NCBI GenBank assembly: GCA_021788645.1
Contig: JAJYKK010000006.1
Span: forward strand, 6,022-70,021
DNA length: 64,000 nucleotides
Direction: 5' to 3'
DNA from: Pseudomonadota bacterium
GTDB taxonomy: Bacteria; Pseudomonadota; Gammaproteobacteria; Burkholderiales; JAKAFK01
Within the stretch, counting starts at the first letter, position 1. Every line of letters begins with the position of its first letter. Shown here one piece after another: positions 9,710 to 50,903 of the stretch. A program made the position numbers and the translations under genes. The notes below the pieces were generated by a model. That model had not been told where the DNA came from and did no database searches. It was given only the letters and a program-made list of their open reading frames with translations.

Positions 9710-10405
9710 ATGATCAGAGAATGGATGGCAACGAGAGGACGTTGGGAGGCGATGGCGATGGTCGGTTTGTGCCTATGCGCGGCTCGCGCGCATGCATCGT
9801 CGAATTTCGACCCCGCCCTCCTCGGGCCTGGCTTTTTCGGTTCGCGGGCGGTGACCGAATGGCACGGCCAGGGCCGCCGGGCCCTCGCCCACTGGGACAT
9901 GTTCTCCGACGGTCTCGGCTTCCGTGCGGGGTCTCAAGTCACGGGCAGAAGGGCTTACGACCTGCGGCGCATCGCCATGCGCGCGCGCAATGGGGCCCTC
10001 CCGCACGACGGGCGCGGCTTGTTTAGGCGGTGGACGCTGTGGACTGCCTCATGCCTCGGCGGAGAGTGCCTGTCGCGCGACGACACGCGAACCGGAACCG
10101 CCTCGTGGCGCGCGGGGGACCTCACGCCATGGGACGGCTTACCTGACGGTCCACGCTTCTCGTTCCGCCTGGGACCGAGGCGATGGGACCGCCTGGCGGA
10201 TGATCCGTTTGCGCGCCCCCCAGTCCGTTGGCTCGTCCCGGCAGGGGCGAGCGGCCGGCTCACGGTCGCACTCGTGAGGCTGGACCGGATCGCAGACCGC
10301 TCACCTTCCGTCGCTCCGGCCCCAATCCCCGCGCCTGTGACGCTATTGGGGTCCGGACTCCTCGGGCTGGTCGGCTTCGCGCGCCGGCGTCCGCCCCGCC
10401 TGTAG
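9710..10405 (+). CDS. Secreted Arg/Trp-rich protein with exosortase-type C-terminal sorting domain
   Basis: 231 aa. A signal peptide (MAMVGLCLCAARAHA) and the C-terminal ...APIPAPVTLLGSGLLGLVGFARRRPPRL are in the same frame. GGAGAG lies 8 nt before the ATG. Alternative in-frame ATGs are at 9725 and 9752. Confidence 0.7.
   Translation: MIREWMATRGRWEAMAMVGLCLCAARAHASSNFDPALLGPGFFGSRAVTEWHGQGRRALAHWDMFSDGLGFRAGSQVTGRRAYDLRRIAMRARNGALPHDGRGLFRRWTLWTASCLGGECLSRDDTRTGTASWRAGDLTPWDGLPDGPRFSFRLGPRRWDRLADDPFARPPVRWLVPAGASGRLTVALVRLDRIADRSPSVAPAPIPAPVTLLGSGLLGLVGFARRRPPRL
10313..10402 (+). other. C-terminal sorting signal (I-P-A-P motif, TM helix, Arg cluster)
   Basis: In APAPIPAPVTLLGSGLLGLVGFARRRPPRL, the helix LLGSGLLGLVG-[LF]-AR is nearly identical to that of cargo 1. 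Confidence 0.75.
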
Positions 10406-15446: not shown

Positions 15447-17033
15447 TTAGTTCGGGACGTAGCTGGTCAGGCGCGGAACGGCGGCCCGCGCAAAACTGCT
15501 CAGGATCCGGTCGGCACGGCTGGGCGATTCGCCGGGCGAAAGTTCAGTGGTCAGGCGAACCAGCGCGCCGTCGGTGCGGTTTTGCCGGAGCGCATCCCAC
15601 AGCAGGTACCATTTCGCCAGGTATTCATTGGTAATGATCCTCCCCCGCTCCTGGAACCAGTAATACACAAGCTCCTTGACGTTGCCCTTGGCGATGACCA
15701 GACGATTCACGCGTAGCGGGTGTCCATTGACCCGCACGCCGCGCACCGCTCTTTGCGTCAGGCTCGTGATCTCCCAGCCGCCCCCGGGGATGCAGGTGCG
15801 CGGCGAGTGCGCCGACGCGCCTTTGCGCTGAGAGGCATAATAGGCCACATAGAAATTGACCACCTTGCGCGCCGTGCCGACATAATCGGCCAACAGGTAG
15901 TCCGTGAACTTGAGCTGCTTGATATAGATGTCGGCCATCTGTCCGCCGTGCCCTTGCCAGCCCGGAAGGTGCATCGGGAAGGTCGCAAAGTCTTGTCGCT
16001 TAGGCGTGACTTCGGCCCGCTTGGGGAGCGCGGTGGTGGCCAAAGCGACCAGGGCGAGGAGCCCCACCGCGACCAAATAGGAGGTGGGTAGCCGTCTGAC
16101 GCGGGCGCCGCGCGCGCGGGCACCGCGCGGCCACTCCAGCCCAAACACTTCGGCCAGATGCCGCCTGTCTCTGCCCACGCGGGCCATGACCCACATCTCC
16201 CCCACCAGGAGCGCCGTGCAGATCATGAAGATCACCCATCCCTCGAAAAGATGGAGAAAGCCCTCCGCCATCGCGCGGCCCCACCAGTCGACCGTCACGC
16301 CCACCAAGCCGATCCGGAAACTGTTCATCAGCACGGTCATGGGCACGGTGGAGACAAACACCAGCGCCCGTTTCCAGAGCGGCGCCTGAAACAGATAGGC
16401 CGCCACGAACCCCAGGGTCATCAGCGGAAACAGGTAGCGCAACCCGCTGCAGGCGTCGACCACCTGCAATTTGAGGCTGCCGAGATCGATGACGTTGCCG
16501 GCAAGATAGACGCTGTCCCCGAACGCCCGGATGAAGTCCACCCCCAACCGGGAGGACAACAGCTCGAGCTGCTCGGAGAGATTGTTGTAAAGGAAATTCG
16601 GCAGCGGAATCATCAGCCCCAGGATCAGCACGGGAATGCCGATCACCCGGAAGGCCCGCGGCCCCATGAAGGCCAGCGTCACGCCTGCCAGCACGACGAG
16701 AAAGGCGTATTGCACCAGAATGTACAGGGCGGACAGCTGCCCTGCGCCATACACCAGGGCGCCCAGCAGCACCACCGCGACACCCATCCAGGACCCGTCG
16801 AACGGCAAGCGCGCGAGGCGGTCCGACCGCTGCCAGACCAGGAACAGCGCAATCAATGGGATCAAGGGACCGTAACTGTATTCCGCGTGCGCTGGACTGA
16901 ACCACCATTGCACCATGACCGCGAGCCCGGCGTGGAAGACGCTCGCGAGAAGAAGCGCGGCCAGGGCCATGGAAGCCCATGCCGCGACCGACAGTTTCCA
17001 AAGGCTGGGTTCGTGTCCGCTCGCCACATCCAT
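15447..17033 (-). CDS. Exosortase fused to an EpsI-family domain
   Basis: 528 aa. Exosortase signature residues appear in VVDACSGLRYLF (Cys), LMNSFRIGL (Arg) and FLHLFEGW (His). The C-terminal ~200 aa carry the EpsI motif HSPRTCIPGGGW. Confidence 0.9.
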   Translation of the reverse strand: MDVASGHEPSLWKLSVAAWASMALAALLLASVFHAGLAVMVQWWFSPAHAEYSYGPLIPLIALFLVWQRSDRLARLPFDGSWMGVAVVLLGALVYGAGQLSALYILVQYAFLVVLAGVTLAFMGPRAFRVIGIPVLILGLMIPLPNFLYNNLSEQLELLSSRLGVDFIRAFGDSVYLAGNVIDLGSLKLQVVDACSGLRYLFPLMTLGFVAAYLFQAPLWKRALVFVSTVPMTVLMNSFRIGLVGVTVDWWGRAMAEGFLHLFEGWVIFMICTALLVGEMWVMARVGRDRRHLAEVFGLEWPRGARARGARVRRLPTSYLVAVGLLALVALATTALPKRAEVTPKRQDFATFPMHLPGWQGHGGQMADIYIKQLKFTDYLLADYVGTARKVVNFYVAYYASQRKGASAHSPRTCIPGGGWEITSLTQRAVRGVRVNGHPLRVNRLVIAKGNVKELVYYWFQERGRIITNEYLAKWYLLWDALRQNRTDGALVRLTTELSPGESPSRADRILSSFARAAVPRLTSYVPN

Positions 17034-36037: not shown

Positions 36038-36534
36038 GGCGCGTCACGCTGCGGGGCAGCCAACGACACATCCACCGAGACCCACCCGGGAGGCCCTGCT
36101 GGCCGCACCCGTGCTCCTTCGACCCTAACGCCGAGGTGGCGCTGGAGCCGCCCGATCCACTGAATCCAGCCGTCGAACTGCACCGAGGCGAAACGCACGG
36201 TCAAGGCGTCCGATCCGTCGGGGACGACGGCCTCCGGCCTCAGCCCAGCACCGCGCGCGGATTGCGAGACCGCCGATTGCAGCTTGGCCCCGGAGAGGGG
36301 CGCGACCGCGGCCGACGCCTTGAGCACGCGCACCGCCGTCTCATCGCGCCGCATCGCCTGCGCCTGGGCAACGAGCGCCGGCAGGGCCTGTGTCAGCCGC
36401 GCGCGCGTCTTCACCATGGGCACCCATAGGTAGAGGAAAAAGAAGATGGCCAGTACCAGCGTCCCCCCCGCCAGGAAGAGGGCACGCTCGCGGGGCAACC
36501 GCTCGCGCCAGAACTGCCGCATGGTCTCGTTCAT
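36034..36534 (-). CDS. gspM: Type II secretion system protein M
   Basis: 166 aa. MNETMRQFWRERLPRERALFLAGGTLVLAIFFFLYLWVP is a typical GspM N-terminus. Confidence 0.82.
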   Translation of the reverse strand: MNETMRQFWRERLPRERALFLAGGTLVLAIFFFLYLWVPMVKTRARLTQALPALVAQAQAMRRDETAVRVLKASAAVAPLSGAKLQSAVSQSARGAGLRPEAVVPDGSDALTVRFASVQFDGWIQWIGRLQRHLGVRVEGARVRPAGPPGWVSVDVSLAAPQRDAP

Positions 36535-37820
36535 GTTGGGTCTCTGGATAACCGCAGCTGGATGTTCACGCCGTGCGACGCTCGCTCGATTCTTGCACGG
36601 ACCCGAAACCCGGCGGCCAGCAGACGGCGCTGCAGCAAGGCAGCACCCGCCTCGTTCGGCAGCGCCACATCGAGCGTCAGCGTGCCGGCAGCATAGGTCA
36701 GCGCAGTGAGTCGGGCGGGCGCCAACGCGCTTGCGGCTCGCGCGAGAAGCGGCAGGAAGTCGCGCGGATCGAGCTGGCCATGGGCGTGCCGCAAATCCAT
36801 GAGATTGCGGCGCATCTGCAAGACCGGATCGACGATCGCCGTGGTCTCCGGAAATGCCCGCCTGAAGCTGCCGAGCATATCGGCACGCAGCCGCTTCGCC
36901 TCATGGGCCATCTTCAGCGTGGCGAGCCCTTCGCCGCCCACGGCGAGCAGCAGGAGGGCCGCGGCGGCCCACAGGGCCGGGCGCAGCTGCAGCAGGCGCT
37001 CGCGGGTAAACCACGCCGCCCCGACGATTCCCATGCCGGGGGCCAAGTTGATCGCCGCGCCGCGCGCAGGCAGGTATTCGGCTGAGCCAGCGGGTTCTGC
37101 CAGACGCACCGGCACCCCGAGCATCCCCTCCCATGCGCGGACATCCGGCGCCTGCCCGCCCACGGCACGCAGCACCAGCTCGCGCGGTGCCGAGCCCTGC
37201 GCGGCCGCTTCCGACAGGGCCAAGCCCAGGGTATAGGGCGGCGCCCCCTCGGGCGCGCCGTCGAGCGCGAATCCGGACGTCTCACCCGTGCGCACGAAGC
37301 CGCCGCCCCCCTTCCACACCACCCCCCATTGCCCCTGTTCCACGGGCACGCTCAACGACTCCGGAATGATGGCTTGCGGGAAAAGGCGCGCCTCCCGCAA
37401 CCGGACCACCAGCGCGTTCCAATACGTACGGTCGACGACGGCCACCGGGAACTCGCCGCTGGGGAGCCTTGGGCCCGGCGCGACGTGGATCGCCTCCGGA
37501 TCGCACATCAGCTTCTCTTCCACCGCGAAGGGAAGCAATTGCGCGAGCCTTCGCCCGCGCACTTGCGGCACCCGCACGCAGGTCAACAACACGAGACTGG
37601 CCGGCAAGACGACGGTGAGCCGATCAGCCTTCGGCATCTGGGCTAGCGGGGCCTGGCCGCGCCGGGGCTCGGCCTGTCCCCGATACCACGCATAGTCGAT
37701 GGCCGCAGGCTCCGCTCCCCACGTTTCCGGCATGTAAACGTGCAAGGCGGACACGGCGCGTCTCCTTCCGTTGTGCGGCCGCAAGACCAAGGTCTCGGCA
37801 AGGGTTCCCGTCAGGCGCAT
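36531..37820 (-). CDS. gspL: Type II secretion system protein L
   Basis: The track ORF 36531..38558 is trimmed to the ATG at 37820, which overlaps the gspK TGA by 1 nt. MRLTGTLAETLVLRP...LLPFAVEEKLMCDPEAIHVA is the GspL cytoplasmic-domain motif, and a mid-protein TM is present. Confidence 0.85.
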   Translation of the reverse strand: MRLTGTLAETLVLRPHNGRRRAVSALHVYMPETWGAEPAAIDYAWYRGQAEPRRGQAPLAQMPKADRLTVVLPASLVLLTCVRVPQVRGRRLAQLLPFAVEEKLMCDPEAIHVAPGPRLPSGEFPVAVVDRTYWNALVVRLREARLFPQAIIPESLSVPVEQGQWGVVWKGGGGFVRTGETSGFALDGAPEGAPPYTLGLALSEAAAQGSAPRELVLRAVGGQAPDVRAWEGMLGVPVRLAEPAGSAEYLPARGAAINLAPGMGIVGAAWFTRERLLQLRPALWAAAALLLLAVGGEGLATLKMAHEAKRLRADMLGSFRRAFPETTAIVDPVLQMRRNLMDLRHAHGQLDPRDFLPLLARAASALAPARLTALTYAAGTLTLDVALPNEAGAALLQRRLLAAGFRVRARIERASHGVNIQLRLSRDPT

Positions 37821-38752
37821 CAGCTTACCTTCTTCCACAGGATCTGCGTTCCCGAACCGCGCGCGCGGTACAGCAACGCCTTCTCGGTCACCCGCACCCG
37901 GTGATAGCGGATGTGCACGTGCACCAGAAAATATTGGCTGTTGACCGAGAATGCCTGGTCGCGCACCCCCGCAAGCTGCCCGGCCGTGAGCCGCCCGGCA
38001 AAGTCCGCTTGGCTCTGGAAATACGCGTCCCCGCGGCTCGCCACCAGGGCCTGCGCTTCGCTCAGGCCGAGCCCGGGAAACACGGCGGCGAGCACCTCCG
38101 CCGGGGCCGTGTTCACGTTCACCGGCGTGTACCCCGGAAGCGCCGTGACGAAGGGGCGCAGGCGTTCCACGATGCGCGCATCGAAGCCCTTGATGCGATA
38201 CAGCTCGTCGACGTCGGTCAGGGGGCGGTGCGCATCCCGGTACGGCGGCTCCTGCGCCAGATAATAGGCATCCAGCGCCCCGGGATAGGGCGGCGATACC
38301 CAATCGGCCACCGCACCGGCCAGCTCCGGGGGCAGATCCAGCAGGACGAGCAAGCGCCTGAACGCCGCGACATCCTGCGCACTGCCGCCGCCCACGCCGG
38401 CGAGATCGTTGAGATTGAAGCGGCTTTGCGCATCCGTCACGTTCCCCGCCACGGACCCGGATCCCACGGCGACGGGCGGCAAGGGGCGCGCCCATAGCTG
38501 CCCGAGGTCGTCGATGCCGCTTTGGCGCCCCTCCTGGGCAAGGATCGCCCCGGCCCACGCGATACCCGCGCGGGCGACGGCGTCGGCCTGCGCCGCGTCC
38601 TCAAGATTCGCCACTTGCCTCACCCACATCCGCTCCCGCCAAGCCATCGCGCCCACCGCGGCTGCCGCCAGCGCCACCACGAGAAGTGCCGTCACGACCG
38701 CCAGGCCCGCTTGGCGCGGCGCGATTCCGCCTGCGCGCATCGCCCTGCTCAT
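37820..38752 (-). CDS. gspK: Type II secretion system minor pseudopilin K
   Basis: 310 aa. GLAVVTALLVVALAAAAVGAM...NVTDAQSRFNLNDL... is present. Confidence 0.9.
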   Translation of the reverse strand: MSRAMRAGGIAPRQAGLAVVTALLVVALAAAAVGAMAWRERMWVRQVANLEDAAQADAVARAGIAWAGAILAQEGRQSGIDDLGQLWARPLPPVAVGSGSVAGNVTDAQSRFNLNDLAGVGGGSAQDVAAFRRLLVLLDLPPELAGAVADWVSPPYPGALDAYYLAQEPPYRDAHRPLTDVDELYRIKGFDARIVERLRPFVTALPGYTPVNVNTAPAEVLAAVFPGLGLSEAQALVASRGDAYFQSQADFAGRLTAGQLAGVRDQAFSVNSQYFLVHVHIRYHRVRVTEKALLYRARGSGTQILWKKVS

Positions 38753-39369
38753 CGTGCAAACACCCGCACCAGCCGCCCGCCCCCCGCCAGCACCACAGTC
38801 ACCTTGACCGCGCGCGGCAGATCCTCACCGGCGCGCGCCGGCCATGCGCCCGCCCAGCGCCCCTCACGGTCGAGGTACGCAAAATCCAGACGCGTCACGT
38901 GGGCGAGCATGCGCGTGACGAGTGGGCGGGTGGACGGCGCGGCGTCCAACGCCGGCCACAACAGCCACTCGACGCGCCCGCCGCGCAGGCGATAGCCCAC
39001 GCGCTGGGGCGCGGCCATCGGATCGTGCCGGTCGGGAAAACCCATGCGCGTGAACACGATCTCGGGCGCGCCGTGGGGCCCGTCCGGCCCGCCGTAGAAG
39101 GCCGGCTCTGCGGTAAGGCCGTCCGGCGCGCTCACCGGGCGGTCGACGGCGGAGCCGAGATCCTGTCCGAAGCGGGCAAAGAAAATCGCCACATCGCGCC
39201 ATTTGCGGTCCTCCGCCAGGACGTGGTCGCGCGTCGCCAGCACGGCATCGAGCCCCCGGTAAGCCAAGGCCGACAGGAGCGCGAAGATCGCCACGGCGAC
39301 CAGGAGCTCCACCAGGGTGAAGCCGCCGTCCGCATGGCCAGACTCCCGCCGCACCGGCATCCGGGTCAT
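38749..39369 (-). CDS. gspJ: Type II secretion system minor pseudopilin J
   Basis: 206 aa with the prepilin-type leader GGFTLVELLVAVAIFALLSALAY. Confidence 0.9.
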   Translation of the reverse strand: MTRMPVRRESGHADGGFTLVELLVAVAIFALLSALAYRGLDAVLATRDHVLAEDRKWRDVAIFFARFGQDLGSAVDRPVSAPDGLTAEPAFYGGPDGPHGAPEIVFTRMGFPDRHDPMAAPQRVGYRLRGGRVEWLLWPALDAAPSTRPLVTRMLAHVTRLDFAYLDREGRWAGAWPARAGEDLPRAVKVTVVLAGGGRLVRVFAR

Positions 39370-39773
39370 GGCGAAGCGACCGACGCGGCCGAGACGTGCG
39401 CCAGATAGCCCACCACGTGCGCCACCGCGTACTGCGGGTCGCCGCTTGCATAGACGCGGATGTCGATCCGCTCAAAACGCCGATTCGGGGTCTTGGTCAC
39501 CGCCTCCCGCCACTCGAACGACCGGCCCGCCTCGGCTTGCGTCCCGCTGGCCGTACCCACCGCCGGCCAGTCGCGCATCGCCTCGTGGAGCGCGAGCCGA
39601 TTCTGCGCCACGAAGCCGCCCAGCAGGCGCGTGCGGACCTGGCCCGCAGCGTCCACCAGACTCAATGTCGCGCGCGAGACCGCCGCCAAGGCAATCGCGA
39701 GAATGGCAAGGGCGACGATCACCTCGAGCAAGGTAAACCCCCGGCTGCCTCTTTTTTCCCGTCTACTGTCCAC
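39366..39773 (-). CDS. gspI: Type II secretion system minor pseudopilin I
   Basis: The track ORF is trimmed to the GTG at 39773 (VDSRREKRGSRGFTLLEVIVALAILAIAL...), which carries a prepilin leader. The start overlaps the gspH end by 11 nt. Confidence 0.82.
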   Translation of the reverse strand: MDSRREKRGSRGFTLLEVIVALAILAIALAAVSRATLSLVDAAGQVRTRLLGGFVAQNRLALHEAMRDWPAVGTASGTQAEAGRSFEWREAVTKTPNRRFERIDIRVYASGDPQYAVAHVVGYLAHVSAASVASP

Positions 39774-40278
39774 GGAGGCCTCCGAGGCGCACGGCACCCC
39801 GTCCGTCGCAGGCCACGGACACGCGCCGCCCGGCCAAGGCGAGCGTAAGCCGAAACGGAAGCCCGATGCCCTGCGCCGCAAAAACGATGCGCGAGCCACC
39901 TGCGAGCGGTGCGCCGTCGGCCTGCGCCGCGACGATGCGCACCCCGGGCGGCAGCTCGCGCGCACGAAAGACGCGCGCCGCATCGAGCGCCCAACGCCCC
40001 GTCCCGTCCCGTTGCCAGAATGCGTAGCCCCCACCCTCCTGGGACCAGCCGATGCTGCTCCCGGTAATCAGCGCCTCTTCGCGCGCCTGCTCCAGGAGGG
40101 CCGCCAAGCGGCGGGCCGAGTCCTCAAGCCGGCGTGACGGATCCGGCATCAACCGCACGGCGGCAACGCCGACCATGATGCCGACGATCGCGAGCACGAC
40201 CAGGAGCTCGATCAGGGTGAATCCGGTGCCCCTGCCGGGGGGCGACGCATCAGTGCTGCCAGGAGCCGATTTCCGCAT
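39763..40278 (-). CDS. gspH: Type II secretion system minor pseudopilin H
   Basis: The track ORF is trimmed to the ATG at 40278 (MRKSAPGSTDASPPGRGTGFTLIELLVVLAIVGIMVG...). The start overlaps the gspG end by 29 nt and is therefore somewhat uncertain. Confidence 0.8.
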   Translation of the reverse strand: MRKSAPGSTDASPPGRGTGFTLIELLVVLAIVGIMVGVAAVRLMPDPSRRLEDSARRLAALLEQAREEALITGSSIGWSQEGGGYAFWQRDGTGRWALDAARVFRARELPPGVRIVAAQADGAPLAGGSRIVFAAQGIGLPFRLTLALAGRRVSVACDGRGAVRLGGLRGQ

Positions 40279-40684
40279 CTTCTCCCTGCCCTCCGGGTTG
40301 TCCTTGCGGGCCGTAGCTGAACACGTCGATTCGGCCGTGGACGCCGGGATTGAGGTACAGGTACTCGCGCCCCCAGGGATCCTTCGGCAGCCGTTCCAGG
40401 TACCCCCCGGGCTTCCAGTTGGCAGGAATGGGCGGCACGGTGGGCCTGGACACCAGCGCCGACAGCCCCTGGTCGGTGGTGGGATAGGTCCCGTTGTCCA
40501 GCTCGTAGAGCTTGAGGGCCTGCATGATGGTGCTGATGTCGGCCCGGGCGGCAACGACCCGCGCCTGCTCGGGACGGCTCATGATCTTGGGCACCACCAG
40601 GGCTGCCAGAATGCCCAGGATCACGACCACGATCATGATTTCGATCAGGGTGAACCCACGTTGTTCGTCGCGCGCGCGCATCAT
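40250..40684 (-). CDS. gspG: Type II secretion system major pseudopilin G
   Basis: 144 aa. QRGFTLIEIMIVVVILGILAALVVPKIMSRPEQARVVAARADISTIMQALKLYELDNGTYPT...DPWGREYLY is canonical GspG. Confidence 0.97.
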   Translation of the reverse strand: MMRARDEQRGFTLIEIMIVVVILGILAALVVPKIMSRPEQARVVAARADISTIMQALKLYELDNGTYPTTDQGLSALVSRPTVPPIPANWKPGGYLERLPKDPWGREYLYLNPGVHGRIDVFSYGPQGQPGGQGEDAEIGSWQH

Positions 40685-40729
40685 TCAAAGCCTCCTTCCA
40701 TTGCACCGATGCCTGGCGGAGCCCGCTCC

Positions 40730-41929
40730 TCAGTGCACCAGCTGATTCATGTCGAAGATGGGCAGCAAGATCGCCAGCACGATGACCAGCACGGTCGCGC
40801 CCATCGCCAGAATAAGGGCCGGCTCGAGCAGCGTGACCAGCATGGAGATGCGCCCTTCGACTTCGAGCGCCTGTTGCGAGGCCACGCGCTCCAGCATCGC
40901 CGCCAGCTGCCCGCTCGTCTCGCCGCTCGCCACCAGGTGGACCATCATCGGCGGGAACAACCCGCTATGCGACAGGGCACGCGCAAGACTGACCCCTTCG
41001 CGCACCTTGCGCATGGCCTCCTCGGCAGCCAGCCGCATCGGCACGTTGCCCACGACCGCGGCGGCGGCACCGAGCGCGCTCAGGAGCGGCACGCCGCTAC
41101 CCACCAGGATCGCGAGGCTCGCCGCGAAGCGCGCGGTATTGAGCGCGCGCACCATGCGTCCGACCACCGGCACACGCAGCACCCGCTCGCCCACAAAGCG
41201 GCGCCAACGCGCCTCCTTCAGCGCCCGACGCACCGCCAGCGCGGCGAGCGCGGCTCCCGCGACGAGCACCGGCCAAGCGTGCGCAAACCACTGGCTGAGC
41301 GCGATCAGGGCGCGGGTGAGCCAGGGAAGCGGCTGGCCGCTGTCCTCGAAGACGCCGGCTATTTGCGGCACCACATAAGTGAGCAGGCCACCGACCACCA
41401 GAACCGCCACCGTCGTCACGATGGCGGGATAGACGAAGGCAAGCCCCACTTTCTGCCGCAGCCGCTGCCGGTTGTCGAGATAGTCGGCCAACCGCAGCAT
41501 GACGGCGCCCAGCTGGCCCGAGCGTTCGCCGCTGTCCACCAGCGCCAGGTAGATCGCCGGGAAGGCCCGGGGCTGCTTGGCCAGCGCCTGACCGAGGCTC
41601 AAGCCCGCCAGCACGTCGGCGCGGACGGCCGCGAGCAGCTGCCGCACGGCATGGGATTCCATATGCTCGATACAGGCCGTCAAGGTCCGCTCGACGGTGA
41701 GCCCGGCGTTGAGCAAGGTCGCGAGCTCGCGCGTGAGGACACCCAGCTGCGCCGCACCCGGACCGGCGCGCCATGCTCTCGGGGCGCCCCCCGACAGGGC
41801 ATCGAGGGTCACGGCGGTCAGTCCCCGCGCGCGCAGGCTCAGGCGCGCCTGCCGGGGCGTATCGGCCTCGAGCACGCCCTTCACGAGATGCCCGTCGTCC
41901 CCCACCGCCTCATATTTGAAGCCCGCCAT
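40730..41929 (-). CDS. gspF: Type II secretion system inner-membrane platform protein F
   Basis: 399 aa. MAGFKYEAVGDDGHLVKGVLEADTPRQARLSLRARGL is followed by the duplicated T2SF domain. Confidence 0.95.
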   Translation of the reverse strand: MAGFKYEAVGDDGHLVKGVLEADTPRQARLSLRARGLTAVTLDALSGGAPRAWRAGPGAAQLGVLTRELATLLNAGLTVERTLTACIEHMESHAVRQLLAAVRADVLAGLSLGQALAKQPRAFPAIYLALVDSGERSGQLGAVMLRLADYLDNRQRLRQKVGLAFVYPAIVTTVAVLVVGGLLTYVVPQIAGVFEDSGQPLPWLTRALIALSQWFAHAWPVLVAGAALAALAVRRALKEARWRRFVGERVLRVPVVGRMVRALNTARFAASLAILVGSGVPLLSALGAAAAVVGNVPMRLAAEEAMRKVREGVSLARALSHSGLFPPMMVHLVASGETSGQLAAMLERVASQQALEVEGRISMLVTLLEPALILAMGATVLVIVLAILLPIFDMNQLVH

Positions 41930-41950
41930 GGTGCCCTGTCAGCCCCCGGT

Positions 41951-43501
41951 TCAGGCGGCCGCCTCCTTCTCCTTGAGGCGGCCATGTTCTTCGGCGACAC
42001 GCAGAACCTCCTCCATGCTCGTCTCGCCACTCGCCACCCAGCGCATGCCGTCCTCGCGCAGGCCGATGAGGCCGTGGGCGCGCGCATAGGCGCGCAAGGT
42101 CTCCTCGGAGTCCCGATTGTGGATCTTGCGCAGCATGCCTTCATCCATGACCATCAGCTCATAGATCCCCGTACGTCCCCGATAGCCGGTCCCATCACAG
42201 GCCGCGCAGCCGACCGGGTGATAGACCACGGGCGGCGCCGCCCCAGGCGCGAAGAGCGAGCGTTCGGTCGCATCCGGAGCGCGGGCGCTGCGGCATTCCG
42301 GGCACAACCGCCGCACGAGCCGCTGCGCCAGGACCGCCCGCAGGCTGGAGGCCAGCAGGAACGGCTCGACCCCCATATCGGTCAGGCGGGTCACCGCGCC
42401 GAGCGCATCGTTGGTATGCAGGGTCGCCAGCACCAGATGCCCGGTGAGACTCGCCTGGACCGCGATCTCGGCGGTCTCCAGGTCGCGAATCTCGCCGATC
42501 ATGATGACGTCGGGATCCTGGCGCAGGATCGCGCGCAGCGCCCGCGCGAAGGTCATGTCGATGCGCGGATTGACCTGCGTCTGGCTGATGCCGGCGAGAT
42601 CGTATTCGATCGGATCTTCGACGGTCGCGATGTTGAGCACGGTCTCGTCCAGCCTCGAGAGCGCGGCATACAACGTGGTGGTCTTGCCGGAGCCGGTCGG
42701 GCCGGTCACCAGAATGATCCCGTTCGGATGGTGAATCGCTTCGTCGAGGGCGGCCATCGTCCCCGCGTCAAGCCCCAGGGCAGGGAGCTCGAGGCGGCCT
42801 TGCAGCTTGTCGAGCAGCCGCAGCACGACGCGCTCGCCGTGGCCCGTGGGCAGGGTGGACACGCGCACATCGACGGGGCGGCCGGCGATGCGCAGCGTGA
42901 TGCGTCCGTCCTGGGGCAGCCGCTTTTCCGCGATGTCGAGTTCGGCCATCACCTTGATGCGCGACACGATCGCCGCATGGAGTGCCCGCTGCGGTTCGAT
43001 CACCTCCCGCAACAGCCCGTCGACGCGAAAGCGGACGACCGAGCGCGTTTCATAAGGCTCGATATGGATGTCGGAGGCCTGCTCGCGCAGCGCCTGCGTG
43101 AACAGCGCATTGATCAGGCGAATGATCGGCGCCTCGTCCTCGACATCGAGCAGGTCGCCCACCTTGGGCAATTCCTGGGCCAGTTGCTGCAAGTCGAGAT
43201 CTTGCTCAAGATCGACCATGAGGCTCGCCGTCTGGTGGTCAGGGCGCGAGTAGGCCTGCGCGAGGCAATCCTCGAAACGGCCTGCGGGGATGACGCGCAC
43301 CGACAAGGGCGCCCCGAGCACACGCCGCGCCTCCACCAGCATCTCGGCCCGCACGCCCTCGCGCGCCCAGACCTCGATCTCCGCGCCGCGCGCGCGCGCC
43401 GCGATGATGCCCTTGGCCTTGGCGATCGGGTAGGGCAGCCGAACGGCGATGGCCGGGTCCGGCGCATCCCGTTCATCGGGCGCATCCGAGAGGATGCTCA
43501 T
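41951..43501 (-). CDS. gspE: Type II secretion system ATPase E
   Basis: 516 aa. It has Walker A VTGPTGSGKTTTLYAAL, Asp/His boxes, and the tetracysteine motif CPECR...CAACDGTGYRGR. Confidence 0.97.
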   Translation of the reverse strand: MSILSDAPDERDAPDPAIAVRLPYPIAKAKGIIAARARGAEIEVWAREGVRAEMLVEARRVLGAPLSVRVIPAGRFEDCLAQAYSRPDHQTASLMVDLEQDLDLQQLAQELPKVGDLLDVEDEAPIIRLINALFTQALREQASDIHIEPYETRSVVRFRVDGLLREVIEPQRALHAAIVSRIKVMAELDIAEKRLPQDGRITLRIAGRPVDVRVSTLPTGHGERVVLRLLDKLQGRLELPALGLDAGTMAALDEAIHHPNGIILVTGPTGSGKTTTLYAALSRLDETVLNIATVEDPIEYDLAGISQTQVNPRIDMTFARALRAILRQDPDVIMIGEIRDLETAEIAVQASLTGHLVLATLHTNDALGAVTRLTDMGVEPFLLASSLRAVLAQRLVRRLCPECRSARAPDATERSLFAPGAAPPVVYHPVGCAACDGTGYRGRTGIYELMVMDEGMLRKIHNRDSEETLRAYARAHGLIGLREDGMRWVASGETSMEEVLRVAEEHGRLKEKEAAA

Positions 43502-43551
43502 CGCCTGCCCCCTGGCCCCCTGAATCGCCGGATGCGCATCTGTCGCCCCTT

Positions 43552-45666
43552 TCAGTGACCCGCCGCCGGTGGCCCCGGTGGCTCGACGCTCCGGGGGACG
43601 CTGGCGGGCCCTTGTGGGGCGACCTTGGGCATGAACGGGCCCGGCACGGTCGGCGTGGGATAGTTGGGGAGCAGCACGCGGTGCGGCAGGGCCGCCGCGC
43701 CCTCCTGGCTCATGATGTAACGATAGCGCTGGTCCGTGAGCGCCGCACCCGCCCCGGGGCCGCGCAGGATAATCGGCCGCAGGAAGACCATGAGATTCGT
43801 CTTGACGCGTTTCCGGGTTTCATACCGGAACAGCCCCCCCAGGATGGGAATGCTGCCCAGCACCGGCACCTTGTCCACGGCGTTTTCCACGTCGTCCTGG
43901 ATCAGTCCGCCGAGGACGATGATCTGCCCGTTGTCGACGAGGACGGTCGACTTGAGCGAGCGCTTGTTGGTGATGATCCCGGCCGGGTTCGACGTGTCCG
44001 CGATGGCCGAGACCTCCTGATAGATGGTGAGCTTCACGGCGCCGCTTTGCGTGATCTGCGGCTTGACGTCCAGGGTCAAGCCGACGTTCTTGCGCTCGAT
44101 CGTCTGAAAGGGCGTGACCGTCGCGGAGGCAGCCGTCCCCGCCGCCCCATAGGCGCCGGTCTGGGCATAGCTGCCGGTGATGAAGGGGACGTTCTGGCCC
44201 ACGACGATCTTCGCGTCGTGGTTGTCGAGGGTCAGCAGGTCCGGGGTCGAGAGGATGTTGGCGTTCGAGTCCTGCTCCAGGGCGCGCGCGAGCGCCGTCA
44301 GCCCGGTCACTTCCTGCCCGCCGATGGTAAGGCGCTGCAAAAGACCAATGTTGAGGCCCAAGGCCGGCAGCACGGCGCCGCTGGCAATGCCGGCAGACAG
44401 GTTGATGAGGTTCGCACCGCCGCCTCCCGTGGCGACCCCCGTGGAGAAATTAGTCCCTCCCACCAGGGCCGAATTGCCGCTCTGTCCCAACACCGACTGC
44501 CACTGGACGCCCAGCTCCGCCGCCCTGTTGAGCGTGACCTCGGCGATCAGCGCCTCGACGTAGACCTCGGCCGGCCGCACGTCGAGCCGGTCGATCACGG
44601 CCCGCAGGGAATTATAGACATTGTCCGGCGCCGTCACGATCAGCGAGTTGGTCGCGGCGTCGGCGCGGATGACGCTGTTGCCGGCCGTCACCGGCGCCGC
44701 CGCGGGGGCCGACGGATAGGGCGCCGGGGGGTGCGGCGCGGCGGCGGCGCCCGGCGCCCCTGACAGAATCCCGGCCAGGGTCTTGGCAAGGTCGACGGCA
44801 TTGGCGTTCTTGAGATATATGACGTGCATGTTGCCGCCCGCGCTGGTCGGCACGTCCAGCTGATAGGCGAGCCTGCGCACCTTGTCGATCATCGCGGGAT
44901 CCGGGGCGCGAACGATGAGGCTGTTGGTGCGGGCATCCGGATCGATGACCAGGCTGTCCGCCGCCGGAGAGAGGCCGGCAGGGAGCGGGACGCCGTTAGG
45001 CAAGTGCGGCGCTCCACCGCCGCTTCCAAGCACGGTGGAAATCTGCTGCGCAACGTCCACCGCGGAGGCGTAGTGCAGGGCAATGACCGCGACGTTGCTC
45101 TTGGCCGGCTGATCCACCGCATCGATGATGGCATCGATGCGGTGGATATTTTCCGCGTAGTCGGTAATCACCAGCGCATTGGCGGTCGGATCGGCCGCGA
45201 TGGCGTTGTTGGGCGAGATGAGCGGGCGCAGCACCGGTATGAGCTGCTCCGCGGAGGCATACAGGAGCGGACGCACCTGCGTGATCACGCGGTCGCCATG
45301 GACAGGCACCGAGGTGCCCACGGTCGGGCTGAAGTTGTGCTTCGCGTCGGCTTCCGGCACGATCTTGACCCCGCCCGGGCCGGGGACGGCCGCGAATCCC
45401 TGCATGCGCAGGGCGGCCAGCAGCATCCGATATGCGGTGGCGCGCGAGACCGGATGCGTCGAGACGATATCGATCGTCCCGCCGACCTTGGGATCGATGA
45501 TGAAATTCTTGTGCGCCAACATGCCGACGGCCTTGATGACCGAGACGACGTCGGCATGAACGAAATTGAGCGTGACGCGCGTCGTCTCCTGTGCCCGCGC
45601 GGCCAAAGGAGAAAGACACCACAAGAGCAAAACGGCACGGCATGCGAGACCACCACCCCTCTTCAA
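43552..45666 (-). CDS. gspD: Type II secretion system secretin D
   Basis: 704 aa. It has a signal peptide, N0-N3 domains (VTLNFVHADVVSVIKAVGMLAHKNFIIDPKV...) and the secretin core (VLVDNGQIIVLGGLIQD...KVPVLGSIPILGGLFR). Confidence 0.97.
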   Translation of the reverse strand: MKRGGGLACRAVLLLWCLSPLAARAQETTRVTLNFVHADVVSVIKAVGMLAHKNFIIDPKVGGTIDIVSTHPVSRATAYRMLLAALRMQGFAAVPGPGGVKIVPEADAKHNFSPTVGTSVPVHGDRVITQVRPLLYASAEQLIPVLRPLISPNNAIAADPTANALVITDYAENIHRIDAIIDAVDQPAKSNVAVIALHYASAVDVAQQISTVLGSGGGAPHLPNGVPLPAGLSPAADSLVIDPDARTNSLIVRAPDPAMIDKVRRLAYQLDVPTSAGGNMHVIYLKNANAVDLAKTLAGILSGAPGAAAAPHPPAPYPSAPAAAPVTAGNSVIRADAATNSLIVTAPDNVYNSLRAVIDRLDVRPAEVYVEALIAEVTLNRAAELGVQWQSVLGQSGNSALVGGTNFSTGVATGGGGANLINLSAGIASGAVLPALGLNIGLLQRLTIGGQEVTGLTALARALEQDSNANILSTPDLLTLDNHDAKIVVGQNVPFITGSYAQTGAYGAAGTAASATVTPFQTIERKNVGLTLDVKPQITQSGAVKLTIYQEVSAIADTSNPAGIITNKRSLKSTVLVDNGQIIVLGGLIQDDVENAVDKVPVLGSIPILGGLFRYETRKRVKTNLMVFLRPIILRGPGAGAALTDQRYRYIMSQEGAAALPHRVLLPNYPTPTVPGPFMPKVAPQGPASVPRSVEPPGPPAAGH

Positions 45667-45693
45667 ACGCCTTCCCCTTTCTCTCCGCTTCCG

Positions 45694-46200
45694 TCAGTCC
45701 GCTCGTTGCAGGTGGCGCGCGTAACGCCCTTGAACGGCCATTGGCGCCGCCGCCGGCCCGGGCAGCGCGACGCGGGCCATGGTGCCGCCATCATCCACCA
45801 GCACATGGTGGGCATACACCGCGCGCAGGATCACGCCCGGCGCAAGCGCGGCCCCCACCGCGACCGGCTCGGGTGCGCCGCCGACTCTGCGGATGATCGC
45901 ATAGCCGGGCTGTCCGTCCCCCCCCGCCATGACCCCTTCAAGTTCGACGCCGACGGCCACGGACAATGGTTTCATCTCGGCGCGCTGCGCCGTCCCGAAG
46001 AGGTGTCCGTCGGCAATGCGCTCGGCGTCCGAATCGGCCGATGCCGGGTTCGAAGAGATCCACAGGGGCGGCGCCGAAGGGGCCAAGAACACCCACGTCC
46101 AGTAGGCGGCGCACCAACACAAGGCCACGCCGAGGCCCGCCGTCAAAACCCATACCCATGAGGGCTTGGCGGTATGCGCGAACAATCTGACTGGGGCCAT
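45694..46200 (-). CDS. gspC: Type II secretion system protein C-like (short; TM plus HR domain, no PDZ)
   Basis: 168 aa. It is the first gene of the operon. It has an N-terminal TM (WVWVLTAGLGVALCWCAAYWTWVF) and an HR-like segment LEGVMAGGDGQPGYAIIRRVGG...GVILRAVYAHHVLVDDGG. The assignment rests on position and pattern. Confidence 0.62.
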   Translation of the reverse strand: MAPVRLFAHTAKPSWVWVLTAGLGVALCWCAAYWTWVFLAPSAPPLWISSNPASADSDAERIADGHLFGTAQRAEMKPLSVAVGVELEGVMAGGDGQPGYAIIRRVGGAPEPVAVGAALAPGVILRAVYAHHVLVDDGGTMARVALPGPAAAPMAVQGRYARHLQRAD

Positions 46201-46566: not shown

Positions 46567-47133
46567 ATGGCCCGTGCACGGACAGCGGCGCCGATCGCGG
46601 CATGCCTTTCCATCTGTCGCATGGCCCTCAAGCCGGGCTGGCGGTTCCTGGCAAACAGCCGCCGCGCAGCTCCGCGAACCCGCAGTTCAGCCGCCACCCG
46701 CGTGCGGGCGGGGCTCCGCTTCGGGCTGCTTCTCCTGGGCGGCCTCTCGGCCGTGGCAACCTCTTGCGCCAACGTCGGCGCCCCATCTCGAGGGAACGGG
46801 GTACTCACCCCGATGGTGGCCTCCCTTTGCGCCTGCGCGAAGCAAGGCACCGCGCCGACGCGGTGCGGCGGCGTTCCCCGCAACCTGATCCGCACCGATG
46901 CCGCCGGGCGAATTCAGGTGGACGCCGCCTATTCTTGCAGCATTAACGCGCCAACCCACGCCGCGAAGGCTGCGGGTCTGCAGATCTCGGCGCAAGTCCA
47001 TGCCGCGCCGTTTTGTGTCATGGAGGGCTGGATCGAGCCCGCCAGGCTCGCAACGCTGGCGCGTGTCCCGGGGATAAGAACCATCTCGTTGCCGAATTAT
47101 GCAAGGGCCCGGGACCAAAAGATGCGTCGGTAG
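46567..47133 (+). CDS. Small secreted protein paralogous to the N-terminal domain of the adjacent protease
   Basis: The frame is supported by 30/72 ungapped identities (hand alignment) between its C-terminal domain and residues of the downstream protease. The start is uncertain: ATG at 46567, ATG at 46621, or GTG at 46702. The GTG gives a signal-peptide-like RAGLRFGLLLLGGLSAVATSC. The ORF ends 22 nt before the protease ATG. Confidence 0.55.
   Translation: MARARTAAPIAACLSICRMALKPGWRFLANSRRAAPRTRSSAATRVRAGLRFGLLLLGGLSAVATSCANVGAPSRGNGVLTPMVASLCACAKQGTAPTRCGGVPRNLIRTDAAGRIQVDAAYSCSINAPTHAAKAAGLQISAQVHAAPFCVMEGWIEPARLATLARVPGIRTISLPNYARARDQKMRR
46897..47112 (+). repeat. Copy 1 of a ~72-aa paralogous two-Cys domain (in the small ORF)
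   Basis: DAAGRIQVDAAYSCSINAPTHAAKAAGLQISAQVHAAPFCVMEGWIEPARLATLARVPGIRTISLPNYARAR. Confidence 0.75.
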
Positions 47134-47155: not shown

Positions 47156-49441
47156 ATGACCCTGGCAGGCCCAGTGGGGGCCGTCGTGGAAATCCTCGTG
47201 GCGGCTTGCCTGCTTGCCCTCCTGGCACCGGCCCAAGTTGCCTTTGCCAGCGCCTGGCAAGCGCACATTTCGACACGCCTATCGGCTGAACTGCAGCGGG
47301 AAGGCATCATCCCCTCGACCGTTGCGCCCGCCGCCCGCCGGACCCTGTCCGTAGGCGGCGCCCGCTTCGACGCGGCGGGCGGCATCCAGGTGGACATTTC
47401 CCATCCATGCGGACAGCCCGTCGACGCAGGGTCGCTGGCCGCCGCCGGCTTTCATGTCAGCGCCACCGCATCGGCACCTCCCTTTTGCGTCGTGGAAGGG
47501 TGGGTCAGTGCGAGCAGCGTGCCGTATCTCGCGAGCCTGTCCAACGTCACGCTGATGGACCTGCCGCACTATGCGCGCGTCAGGGGCGGTGCGTCTTTCT
47601 CGCCTCGAACGGGCGGCGGTGTCGCGACGATGGCCGGCACGACCCCGATTGACGGGAATGGCGTGAGCATCATGAACGCCGACCTCTACGCCTCCAGCAC
47701 GGGCATCAACGGGAGCGGCGTAACCGTGGGCGTCATCTCTGACGATGATACGAGCCTCGCCACCATACAAGGCCGAGGAGAACTGCCGGGCAATATCACG
47801 AATTATTGCAGCGCCGCAGATCCTTGCAGCGGGTCGACTTTCACCAACACGAACCTGACCCCCACCGATGAAGGCACGATGATGCTCGAGGAAGTGCATG
47901 CCGTGGCCCCTGGCGCGGCACTCGCCTTCTGCGGCCCCCAGACCGATGTCGAGTACGTCCAATGCCTGCAGGCCTTCGCGAACGCCCACGTCAACATCGT
48001 GGCCGACGACCTGGGGTTTCTGGGCGAGGACATCATGTCCAACCAAAGCACATTTACCCAAGGCGTCCAGAACGTCCTGCAAGGCGATTCAGCCCTCACC
48101 CTGTTCAGCGCATCGGGTAACAACGAGGCCGGCTACTGGGAGGGCAATTACGCGCCGACACAGAATACAACAGGCCTCACGCTCACCTGCAATGGGCACA
48201 CGGACGCCTATGTGGAAAATTTCGGAAGCGCCGTTTTCGACCCCTACACCTTCTACAACGACTCATGGGGCGTGTTCCTCGAATGGGATGATCCTTACTC
48301 GAGCAACATCAGCAACTTTGACCTCTACGTCGTCGACCCGTCGAACCACAACGCCATCGTTGGCTGCGTGAGCGGAAGCAGCCAGGCCGATCCGGTGGAT
48401 GCGCTGTGGGCGAATGGGCAGTTCACTGCCGGCAAGACCTATGATATCTACATTGGCAACGACGGATCGTTGGCTGGGAAATTTCTCAAGCTCGACATCA
48501 TGGCCGACGGGGCGAGCTCGTTGGGTACGACCAGCACGGGGGGACTGGATTCGCCCCAGCAATTTGCGATCGGCGATCAGCCCATCGGGGCGGTCAATGG
48601 TTCCGACGGGGTCGGTGCGAGCATCGAGCCATACAGCCAGCAAGGGCCTATCAATCTCGCGTTTTGGAACTCAAGCACGACCCTGAGCAACCCGCTCCAA
48701 CAGATCGATGCACCGGTGCTCGTCGCCCCCGATGGGATCTACGTCGACAATTCGGGAACCGACTTCTCGACCAATATGTTTTTTGGGACATCTGCGGCCA
48801 CACCCAATGCCGCTGCATCGCTGGCGTTGCTCGAAGGCGCCTTCAAAAGTCTGTCCGCCAGCCAACTCATGGGAGACCTGGAGCAGGGTGCCTATCCGCT
48901 CAGTCCCCCATGGAACGGCACATTCGGTTATGGGCGCGTCGATGTGTGGAATGCGCGCCAACAGATTTCGCTGCCCACCGTTAGTCCCATCAAGAACCTC
49001 ACGATGACCGATGGGCAAAGCGCAAGCACCTCGGTCATGGTCAGCGGAACAGCACCTCTGACGATCAGCGTGTCATCGGCCAACAGCATCCTCATCCCCG
49101 CCGCGAACGTTGCGCTCTCCCCATCCAATTGCGGGCAGTCGGGATACAGCAACAACTGCAGTCTCACGATAACGCCCGTCTCGGGGCAAAGCGGCACCAC
49201 CAACCTCACCGTCACCGTCGCCAACAGTTCCAACGAATCGCAGGCGACAACCTTCACCGTGACCGTCGACCCGCCTGCCCTCACGGGTGGAAGCGCAGGC
49301 GGCGGGGGCGGCGGCGGGGGCGGGTGTACCCTCGGGCACGCAGGGCGTCCTGATCCTGTGCTTCCGCTCCTGGTCATCGCCGCTCTCTTCGGGCGCCTGA
49401 GACGACGCCTCCGGCCACACGGCAACGGCAGCCCGAAATAG
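47156..49441 (+). CDS. Subtilase-superfamily (S8/S53-like) serine peptidase with N-terminal two-Cys domain, Ig-like domain and C-terminal Gly9-Cys sorting signal
   Basis: The ORF is trimmed to the ATG at 47156, preceded by GGGAGAG. The signal peptide is MTLAGPVGAVVEILVAACLLALLAPAQVAFA. Peptidase motifs are GVTVGVISDDD, DEGTMMLEEVHAVAPGAAL, FSASGNNEAG and FFGTSAATPNAAASLALL. Confidence 0.85.
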   Translation: MTLAGPVGAVVEILVAACLLALLAPAQVAFASAWQAHISTRLSAELQREGIIPSTVAPAARRTLSVGGARFDAAGGIQVDISHPCGQPVDAGSLAAAGFHVSATASAPPFCVVEGWVSASSVPYLASLSNVTLMDLPHYARVRGGASFSPRTGGGVATMAGTTPIDGNGVSIMNADLYASSTGINGSGVTVGVISDDDTSLATIQGRGELPGNITNYCSAADPCSGSTFTNTNLTPTDEGTMMLEEVHAVAPGAALAFCGPQTDVEYVQCLQAFANAHVNIVADDLGFLGEDIMSNQSTFTQGVQNVLQGDSALTLFSASGNNEAGYWEGNYAPTQNTTGLTLTCNGHTDAYVENFGSAVFDPYTFYNDSWGVFLEWDDPYSSNISNFDLYVVDPSNHNAIVGCVSGSSQADPVDALWANGQFTAGKTYDIYIGNDGSLAGKFLKLDIMADGASSLGTTSTGGLDSPQQFAIGDQPIGAVNGSDGVGASIEPYSQQGPINLAFWNSSTTLSNPLQQIDAPVLVAPDGIYVDNSGTDFSTNMFFGTSAATPNAAASLALLEGAFKSLSASQLMGDLEQGAYPLSPPWNGTFGYGRVDVWNARQQISLPTVSPIKNLTMTDGQSASTSVMVSGTAPLTISVSSANSILIPAANVALSPSNCGQSGYSNNCSLTITPVSGQSGTTNLTVTVANSSNESQATTFTVTVDPPALTGGSAGGGGGGGGGCTLGHAGRPDPVLPLLVIAALFGRLRRRLRPHGNGSPK
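47369..47584 (+). repeat. Copy 2 of the ~72-aa paralogous two-Cys domain (protease N-terminus)
   Basis: DAAGGIQVDISHPCGQPVDAGSLAAAGFHVSATASAPPFCVVEGWVSASSVPYLASLSNVTLMDLPHYARVR. Confidence 0.75.
49286..49438 (+). other. C-terminal sorting signal of a different class (Gly9-Cys, hydrophobic helix, Arg cluster)
   Basis: GGSAGGGGGGGGGCTLGHAGRPDPVLPLLVIAALFGRLRRRLRPHGNGSPK is tripartite, but it has a poly-Gly/Cys signature instead of a P-x-P motif. Confidence 0.7.
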
Positions 49442-50012
49442 CGTCATGGAGGACAGATCGAAGGGCACTCGCTGAAAAGCCGTGGGCATGCGCGTCAGCC
49501 GTTGGCGCGTCGCGGGCGCCCAGCCCTCCATCGCCGCGGATACCCGCATCATCGCGGAGCCCTAGGTACCGAGCACATGGGGCACCGCGCATGGCGGCAC
49601 CATAACATCGTCGGCAAACGGCTCGTCACGGTCGATCCGGGTTTCGATCCGGATGCCGGCACGGCGGTCACAGGCCCCATCAACCCCATGTCTCGCGCGG
49701 CAATTCGGACCTCGCGGCCGACGGCGTCCACGGGCCGCCGCGCGGGGCAGTGAACCTCTCGGGGAACAATGCCTTCTGCGCCGTGTCACCCGGCGCGCCG
49801 CGCCAGGGGCGCAGACTCTTCCTTGATCCAGGGCAGGCTTGCCCGCTCTGGCCGATGCGGCGGCACCACGAGCGGCACACCGATTGCAGGGACGGCACCC
49901 GACAGCCCTGGCCGCCCGATGGGCTCGTCACACACATCGCGCCATGGACGCCGCCTTCCCTTAAGGGGGAACGGTTCCGTTGATCGGCCATGCGACCCGC
50001 GGGAAGTTCGGC

Positions 50013-50903
50013 CTAGTAGGTGTAACGCAGCCCCAATGCGCAACTCGCGATTGCCGTCGTGCTGCTTGGCTCGACCATCACCATGGCGAGGTAGGTGGTC
50101 CCGGAATACAGCCAACCCTGGCTGCTGGCGCCATACTCGAACCGGCTATACGCCAGCTTTGCGAACGCATGGAGCCGCCGCCCCAAGGCGACATCGGCGC
50201 CGATCTCGGCCCTATAGTAGGGCGCAGGTCCGAGCCGCATGGTCGTCTGGCCCAGGCCCGCCCTCGCCATGTCGACGGTGATGCGGGCATCCGCCGTGCG
50301 GCCCGCCGCAACGGCACCGGACAGAATCCATCGGGCGCCGGCCGCATACTGCACCCGGACCCCGAGACCGTAGAAGGCGTTGCGATACGTCTCCTGATAG
50401 CCCCATTCCCCAGACAGCGTCCGATCCCACTCGTGCAGTCCCAATTCCAGGTAGGGTGTCAGCAGCACCTGCGCGGACGGCACGAACCCCTGGCCCAACC
50501 GGAAAATCCCATCTTTGAATCTTGCCCGCGAGGTGTTGTGCAGAGACTCCAGAACCTGGCCTTGCAGGGTCTGCAGCGCACCATCATAGTGAAGCCCCCC
50601 GGCAGTCTCGCGATAAGCCACATGCAGGTAGAACCCGCGGACAACCCCGGCGTGGCGATGCACCCGAACCGGCATGCGCAGCGCGCCCATCCAAGACAAT
50701 CCGAGTTCGCCGCCGCGCAGCGCGCCGTTTTCCGTATCCAGATAGGCCCCGTTGCGCATCTCGCCGTAGTGCACTTCGCTTAGGGCATACGACGCTTCAA
50801 CGGCATTGTTGGCTTCGATCAAGCGGGCCGCGGACGTATCCGTCGCGGCCCGGGCCGCGACGGACGCAAGAAGCAAGAACGCAAGGCAGCACTTCGCGAG
50901 CAT
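50013..50903 (-). CDS. Outer-membrane beta-barrel protein (family not recognised)
   Basis: 296 aa. It has a signal peptide (MLAKCCLAFLLLASVAARA), alternating amphipathic strands, and a C-terminal aromatic end ...ALGLRYTY. Confidence 0.6.
   Translation of the reverse strand: MLAKCCLAFLLLASVAARAATDTSAARLIEANNAVEASYALSEVHYGEMRNGAYLDTENGALRGGELGLSWMGALRMPVRVHRHAGVVRGFYLHVAYRETAGGLHYDGALQTLQGQVLESLHNTSRARFKDGIFRLGQGFVPSAQVLLTPYLELGLHEWDRTLSGEWGYQETYRNAFYGLGVRVQYAAGARWILSGAVAAGRTADARITVDMARAGLGQTTMRLGPAPYYRAEIGADVALGRRLHAFAKLAYSRFEYGASSQGWLYSGTTYLAMVMVEPSSTTAIASCALGLRYTY

Follow-up and report, generated by a model that had tools for sequence, protein, structure and literature searches.

To our knowledge, no JDVT-CTERM protein has been studied experimentally to date. 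The domain is defined by one invariant Cys, by an Asp-Pro that follows nine residues later and is nearly invariant, by a membrane segment rich in Leu and by a cluster of Arg (10.1101/2023.06.07.544157). For the MYXO-CTERM signal, it was shown experimentally that cleavage needs MrtX and the Cys residues and that the type II secretion system delivers the protein to the surface, while it is only proposed that a separate enzyme, possibly Lgt, lipidates the Cys (PMC11980579). GlyGly-CTERM has been linked to type II secretion export as well (statement in PMC11980579). The tag dealt with here has already been modelled, published and assigned to this very protein in GenBank, which limits what can be called a discovery; our additions are modest and consist of a signal swap in a protease family linked to type II secretion and of an observation on tails with an RPDP motif.

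The protease and its tail

The gene at 47156..49441 on the forward strand of the window (the whole stretch of 64 kb analyzed here) encodes a subtilase-like protease (Peptidase_S8) with an Ig-like domain and a JDVT-CTERM tail, predicted to be secreted (Pfam, NCBIfam). The product lies above the Pfam threshold for Peptidase_S8, and a weak match to an Ig-like domain precedes the tail. The reading frame gives 761 aa from the start at 47156 and 780 aa from an alternative upstream ATG at 47099, which is also kept in the sister lineage; after either start, a hydrophobic core and an AFA-S site look like a signal peptide, as judged by eye. The 761-aa form, P0001, is identical to the MAG protein MDA8384572.1 (Betaproteobacteria bacterium), named “JDVT-CTERM domain-containing protein” by NCBI, and its counterpart in the sister lineage, P0002, is 89% identical overall and has retained the tail. 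Across 32 members of the protease family (alignment A4), no His is invariant; the position of the subtilase HGTH is taken by an invariant DEGTxxLEE, while the Asp motif (SDD) and the Ser motif (GTSAAxP) are preserved. Lacking an invariant His, the family does not follow textbook catalytic chemistry, and it may use Ser/Glu/Asp for catalysis, like the sedolisins, in place of the set of a classical S8 peptidase.

The last 51 codons of the gene (49286..49438, forward strand), followed by the stop codon at 49439-49441, translate into the tail GGSAGGGGGGGGGCTLGHAGRPDPVLPLLVIAALFGRLRRRLRPHGNGSPK, exactly as read in the first-pass annotation, and all of the parts described there were found again. Nine consecutive Gly codons (49298..49324), a run common to the GlyGly-CTERM tails of the homologues and with G722 and G723 invariant in the family alignment, are followed by a single Cys (49325..49327), an Asp-Pro motif (49352..49357), the hydrophobic membrane segment VLPLLVIAALFG (49358..49393; hydropathy 2.38), which is short with 12 residues, and the Arg cluster RLRRRLR (49394..49414), which presumably faces the cytoplasm and is separated by eight residues from the stop codon; all of these lie on the forward strand. 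Cys and Asp are residues 14 and 23 of the tail (C-TLGHAGRP-DP), so that the Asp comes nine residues after the Cys. By analogy with the described systems, this Cys is the presumed site of a side-chain modification, with the cut directly after it (10.1101/2023.06.07.544157, PMC11980579). Only the remark that the tail has no P-x-P motif proved wrong, as R-P-D-P-V abuts the helix; there is still no match to the PEP-CTERM or VPLPA-CTERM model. Over 52 aligned codons, the tails of P0001 and P0002 display 12 synonymous and nine non-synonymous differences, while the Cys, the Gly run beside it, RPDPVLPLL and RRR reveal no codon difference at all. Since the signature stayed unchanged while codon differences accumulated between the lineages, the tail is translated and under constraint.

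Class of the sorting signal

The JDVT-CTERM model NF033191 (cutoff 27 bits) scored 40.5 bits on the whole protease (E=1.8e-10) and 47.1 and 48.6 bits on the isolated tail (E=5e-13), a match far beyond chance that spans model positions 1-33 of 35 (49310..49408, forward strand; residues 738-770 of the 780-aa form). MYXO-CTERM (TIGR03901) remained below its cutoff of 20 bits with 13.9 and 16.2 bits, and neither GlyGly-CTERM (TIGR03501, cutoff 15.5 bits) nor PEP-CTERM (TIGR02595) or VPLPA-CTERM (TIGR03370) matched the tail at E<=10, so that membership in these four classes was rejected by the scores. Several tail classes had been put forward at the outset, and with 40.5 bits for NF033191 the HMM scoring bore out the Cys-type JDVT option. 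Every published hallmark of the domain is present in the tail: it has only one Cys, the DP begins at Cys+9, and a helix rich in Leu precedes the Arg cluster. Its membership in the JDVT-CTERM family and its conservation are direct observations.

The left part of the window holds an exopolysaccharide locus with the exosortase XrtD, PrsT, chain-length and export proteins, a sulfotransferase and a heparinase-like gene. XrtD (15447..17033, reverse strand; TIGR04152, 547 bits, cutoff 400) is not cognate to the JDVT tail. Two small secreted cargo proteins (8553-9302 and 9710-10405, forward strand) carry the PEP/VPLPA-like tails DPTPLPGTALLLGSGLLGLVGLARSRK and IPAPVTLLGSGLLGLVGFARRR. With the JDVT tail on the one hand and XrtD and these two cargo tails on the other, the earlier claim that the organism runs at least two C-terminal sorting systems holds at the level of the signals.

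The same tail on other proteins

Three matches in all came from an exhaustive search that used the 36-aa tail as query. A near-identical signature, CTLGHTGRPDPVLP, ends the unrelated 928-aa beta-helix/CLIPPER protein P0121, the 1475-aa ORF P0123 contains the signature twice, and P0122, a TPR-like repeat protein, was discarded as spurious. When the DNA pattern C-x-L-G-x3-RPDP-x-[LF]-P was scanned over one genome per species, five of 54 matches were genuine tails, one per genome: those of the sister lineage, a Mariprofundus MAG, Salinisphaera sp. PC39 and two multihaem-cytochrome genes. A broader pattern yielded at least 120 loci on metagenome contigs, with about 110 genuine tails among the matches listed. 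Because nearly the same signature ends P0121, and closely related RPDP tails end a multihaem cytochrome and a Salinisphaera protein, the tail can be regarded as a portable module; that unrelated proteins of distant taxa have kept it implies that a partner recognizes it specifically.

P0123 (L009 802-5229) displays two internal JDVT-type tails, each followed by an in-frame segment resembling a signal peptide, and a C-terminal OmpA-like barrel; from this layout, either a polyprotein that MrtJ and signal peptidase would cut or read-through of three genes is conceivable. On a contig assigned to a Halobacteria archaeon MAG (L017 2600-5609), the tail of a multihaem cytochrome hardly differs from one in an Ectothiorhodospiraceae MAG (L046) and the locus also has a duplicated segment, oddities that are probably due to mis-binning and an assembly artefact. 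In another MAG from the ENA study that also produced the MAG of the window (L188 1-10519), a single operon comprises four JDVT-tailed proteins followed by mrtJ. Its clients are three CLIPPER/DUF11 proteins and an S8 peptidase that is not orthologous to the protease of the window, and it is a multi-client system, contrary to the rule of one client per genome.

Search for the sorting enzyme

A motif scan for MrtJ/CPBP proteins revealed none in the 64-kb window. Small membrane ORFs directly downstream of tails were recovered from the metagenome loci as MrtJ candidates, and all ten that were tested passed the MrtJ model NF033192 with 78-118 bits (cutoff 75). A profile built from 20 of these ORFs (A3), which gave 140 bits for positive controls, found no match when the window and the contig flanks were translated in all six frames, a search that covered about 77 of the contig's 78 kb, i.e., all except for the last 830 bp or so at one end; the Pfam annotation of the flanks contained neither PF02517 nor a rhomboid. 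The claim that no cognate sorting enzyme is encoded in the window was thus confirmed for MrtJ/CPBP and can be extended to about 77 kb of the contig. Among the best 120 of 197 matches in a protein search with the profile, none could be traced to assemblies of this MAG. P0207 and P0208 (source pattern) and P0145 (high-GC composition) were considered as its MrtJ and turned out to come from other organisms.

The absence of mrtJ next door departs from the two-gene cassette of the published description but is normal, since only 41 of 87 tails (47%) had mrtJ in the same metagenome locus and mrtJ was reported within 4 kb of the client in 17 of 36 cases (10.1101/2023.06.07.544157). From the co-occurrence reported in the same work, an MrtJ is likely to be encoded somewhere in this genome. 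At three further loci (L184 2212-3840, L203 8603-10462 and L204 2073-3932), a gene for an OmpA-like outer-membrane barrel lies directly upstream of mrtJ, with candidate clients further upstream. This arrangement was seen in two unrelated organisms (L184; L203/L204), and the same kind of barrel is fused C-terminally in P0123; some JDVT cassettes may include such a barrel as their third component.

Type II secretion operon and gene neighborhood

Divergent from the protease gene lies the complete type II secretion operon gspC-D-E-F-G-H-I-J-K-L (36531..46200, reverse strand; T2SS C through L by Pfam), with NCBIfam scores of 598 bits for GspD, 702 bits for GspE and 197 bits for GspL. The protease had been placed next to gspC: a gspC-like gene is indeed found at 45694-46200 (reverse strand), but a conserved 188-aa ORF sits in between. 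This ORF (46567..47133, forward strand), directly upstream of the protease gene, shows 43% identity (E=2e-30) to a 189-aa ORF upstream of P0003 (L201). It resembles the N-terminal domain of the protease itself, both sharing the motif ...FCV.EGW...LP.Y, has a lipobox-like start and overlaps the protease start at 47099, though not that at 47156; it may be a stand-alone pro-domain, an inhibitor or a chaperone. The protease gene is divergent to gspC-L in the same layout in both sister lineages. The gene order supports a role of the protease as a client of type II secretion, the best evidence being that its synteny with gsp survives the swap of the tail described below.

On the other side, a gene for a 296-aa protein resembling an outer-membrane barrel (50013..50903, reverse strand) is convergent with the protease gene and found in the same place in the sister lineage. 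The protein matched no family; compared with the OmpA-like gene of the JDVT operon L184, it gave no match. In the 570 bp between both genes (49442-50012), no ORF was convincing, and neither an Rfam match nor anything like a terminator was present; Rfam, promoter and terminator scans around the protease gene gave nothing.

Replacement of the GlyGly-CTERM signal and alternative readings

The best 120 homologues of the protease are 39-50% identical to it, and in about 115 of them the C-terminus consists of a Gly run followed by a short helix and Arg/Lys; seven out of ten tails tested pass the GlyGly-CTERM model TIGR03501 (cutoff 15.5 bits). Among these 120, the Cys...DP element occurs only in P0001 and P0002: the GlyGly-CTERM tail has been replaced in this lineage. 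As the Gly run is common to the homologues, the change looks, from the aligned sequences, like an insertion of 11 residues (CTLGHAGRPDP) or like the exchange of the module that follows this run. The gene of the nearest GlyGly-CTERM homologue, P0003 (50% identity), is likewise divergent to a gsp operon and preceded by the same small ORF, while that of the more distant GlyGly-CTERM homologue P0025 does not adjoin one.

This history raises the question of whether the tail could still be a working GlyGly-CTERM cut by a rhombosortase, the Cys...DP element being merely a lineage-specific linker. The tails of the homologues just described, the retention of the Gly run with its invariant G722 and G723, and the type II secretion genes also found around the 50% identical P0003 would fit such a reading. 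We nevertheless find it quite improbable, given that the GlyGly-CTERM model does not match even at E<=10, that eleven residues part the Gly run from the helix at the exact JDVT spacing, that the CTLGHxGRPDPVLP block is also present on unrelated proteins, and that a rhomboid-family gene is absent from all annotated parts of the contig. It is very hard to see the tail as a PEP-CTERM/VPLPA-CTERM signal that has diverged and is served by the XrtD encoded 30 kb away, even though this enzyme is present in the window and P-D-P-V-L-P abuts the helix much as in the exosortase cargo tails, which read DPTPLPGTALLL and IPAPVTLL; those tails have no Cys, the Cys-to-DP spacing is diagnostic of JDVT-CTERM, and TIGR02595 and TIGR03370 failed to match at E<=10 where the JDVT model reached 40-48 bits.

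A plain membrane anchor or a decaying signal would remain unprocessed, leaving the protease tethered to the inner membrane or freed by unspecific proteolysis. Such an anchor would explain why a cognate enzyme was not found in about 77 kb and why tails of the RPDP type never had mrtJ nearby, yet we consider it a poor candidate in view of signature residues that stayed unchanged between lineages despite synonymous changes and that recur on unrelated proteins of distant taxa. The HMM results, the exact JDVT spacing and the conservation of the signature on unrelated proteins together disfavor the GlyGly-CTERM, XrtD-substrate and unprocessed-anchor readings. The RPDP tails themselves allow a further reading. 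mrtJ was nearby in none of six loci with such tails, as against 47% overall, and was not found near the tail in this lineage either; if loci are taken as independent, the chance of zero in seven at 47% is roughly 1%, a figure from a small and not fully independent sample. The RPDP-[VL]-[LF]-P sub-type, carried by the protease of the window, the CLIPPER adhesin, the multihaem cytochrome and the Salinisphaera protein, might therefore be a separate sorting class, processed by a distal housekeeping MrtJ or an undescribed protease, that displaced GlyGly-CTERM here and left the link to type II secretion intact. We think this rather unlikely; if true, rhombosortase-type and Cys-type tails would be interchangeable entry tickets to surface display mediated by type II secretion.

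Proposed pathway

Our preferred reading, which we regard as highly probable, is that a subtilase-like exoprotein bears a JDVT-CTERM domain as its tail, is cleaved by MrtJ and follows a type II secretion pathway. An N-terminal signal peptide would carry the protease through the inner membrane, in which the C-terminal helix would retain it with the Arg cluster on the cytoplasmic side. By analogy with MYXO-CTERM, the single Cys would then be modified, probably by a lipid, and an MrtJ-type CPBP glutamic intramembrane protease, with its gene somewhere else in the genome, would cleave right after it. The adjacent type II secretion system would finally export the folded protease over the outer membrane, and the modified C-terminus would anchor it at the cell surface. 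Modification, cleavage, export route and surface retention are what we infer, the mechanism being carried over from the MYXO-CTERM system. The protease offers a convenient test case for JDVT-CTERM, combining a readable enzyme activity with a gene beside its probable exporter, the type II secretion operon, and as close relatives carry GlyGly-CTERM, a tail swap could show whether Cys-type and rhombosortase-type signals share a route of surface display.

Comparison with known systems

With the GlyGly-CTERM/rhombosortase system, the tail shares a Gly run before a helix and an Arg cluster, and homologous proteases bear GlyGly-CTERM; it differs in lacking a match to the model and in the 11-residue Cys...DP insert between Gly run and helix. 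MYXO-CTERM/MrtX resembles it in its Cys-bearing tripartite tail, a sorting enzyme of the CPBP family and surface display that depends on type II secretion. However, the score for this class is below the cutoff, the tail of the protease has a single Cys and a DP motif, and MYXO-CTERM is confined to Myxococcota with dozens of clients per genome.

The JDVT-CTERM/MrtJ system (NF033191/NF033192) typically has one client per genome. In the GTDB representative of the sister lineage (L025), one match was obtained with the narrow DNA pattern, which misses other variants. The locus differs from this system in that no mrtJ lies beside the protease gene or on the part of the contig that was read, and in its passenger, a subtilase-like protein with GlyGly-CTERM relatives whose gene is linked to a type II secretion operon. 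Features in common with JDVT-CTERM are a model score above the cutoff, a proteobacterial host, and the make-up of the tail with its one Cys, DP at Cys+9, Leu-rich helix and Arg cluster.
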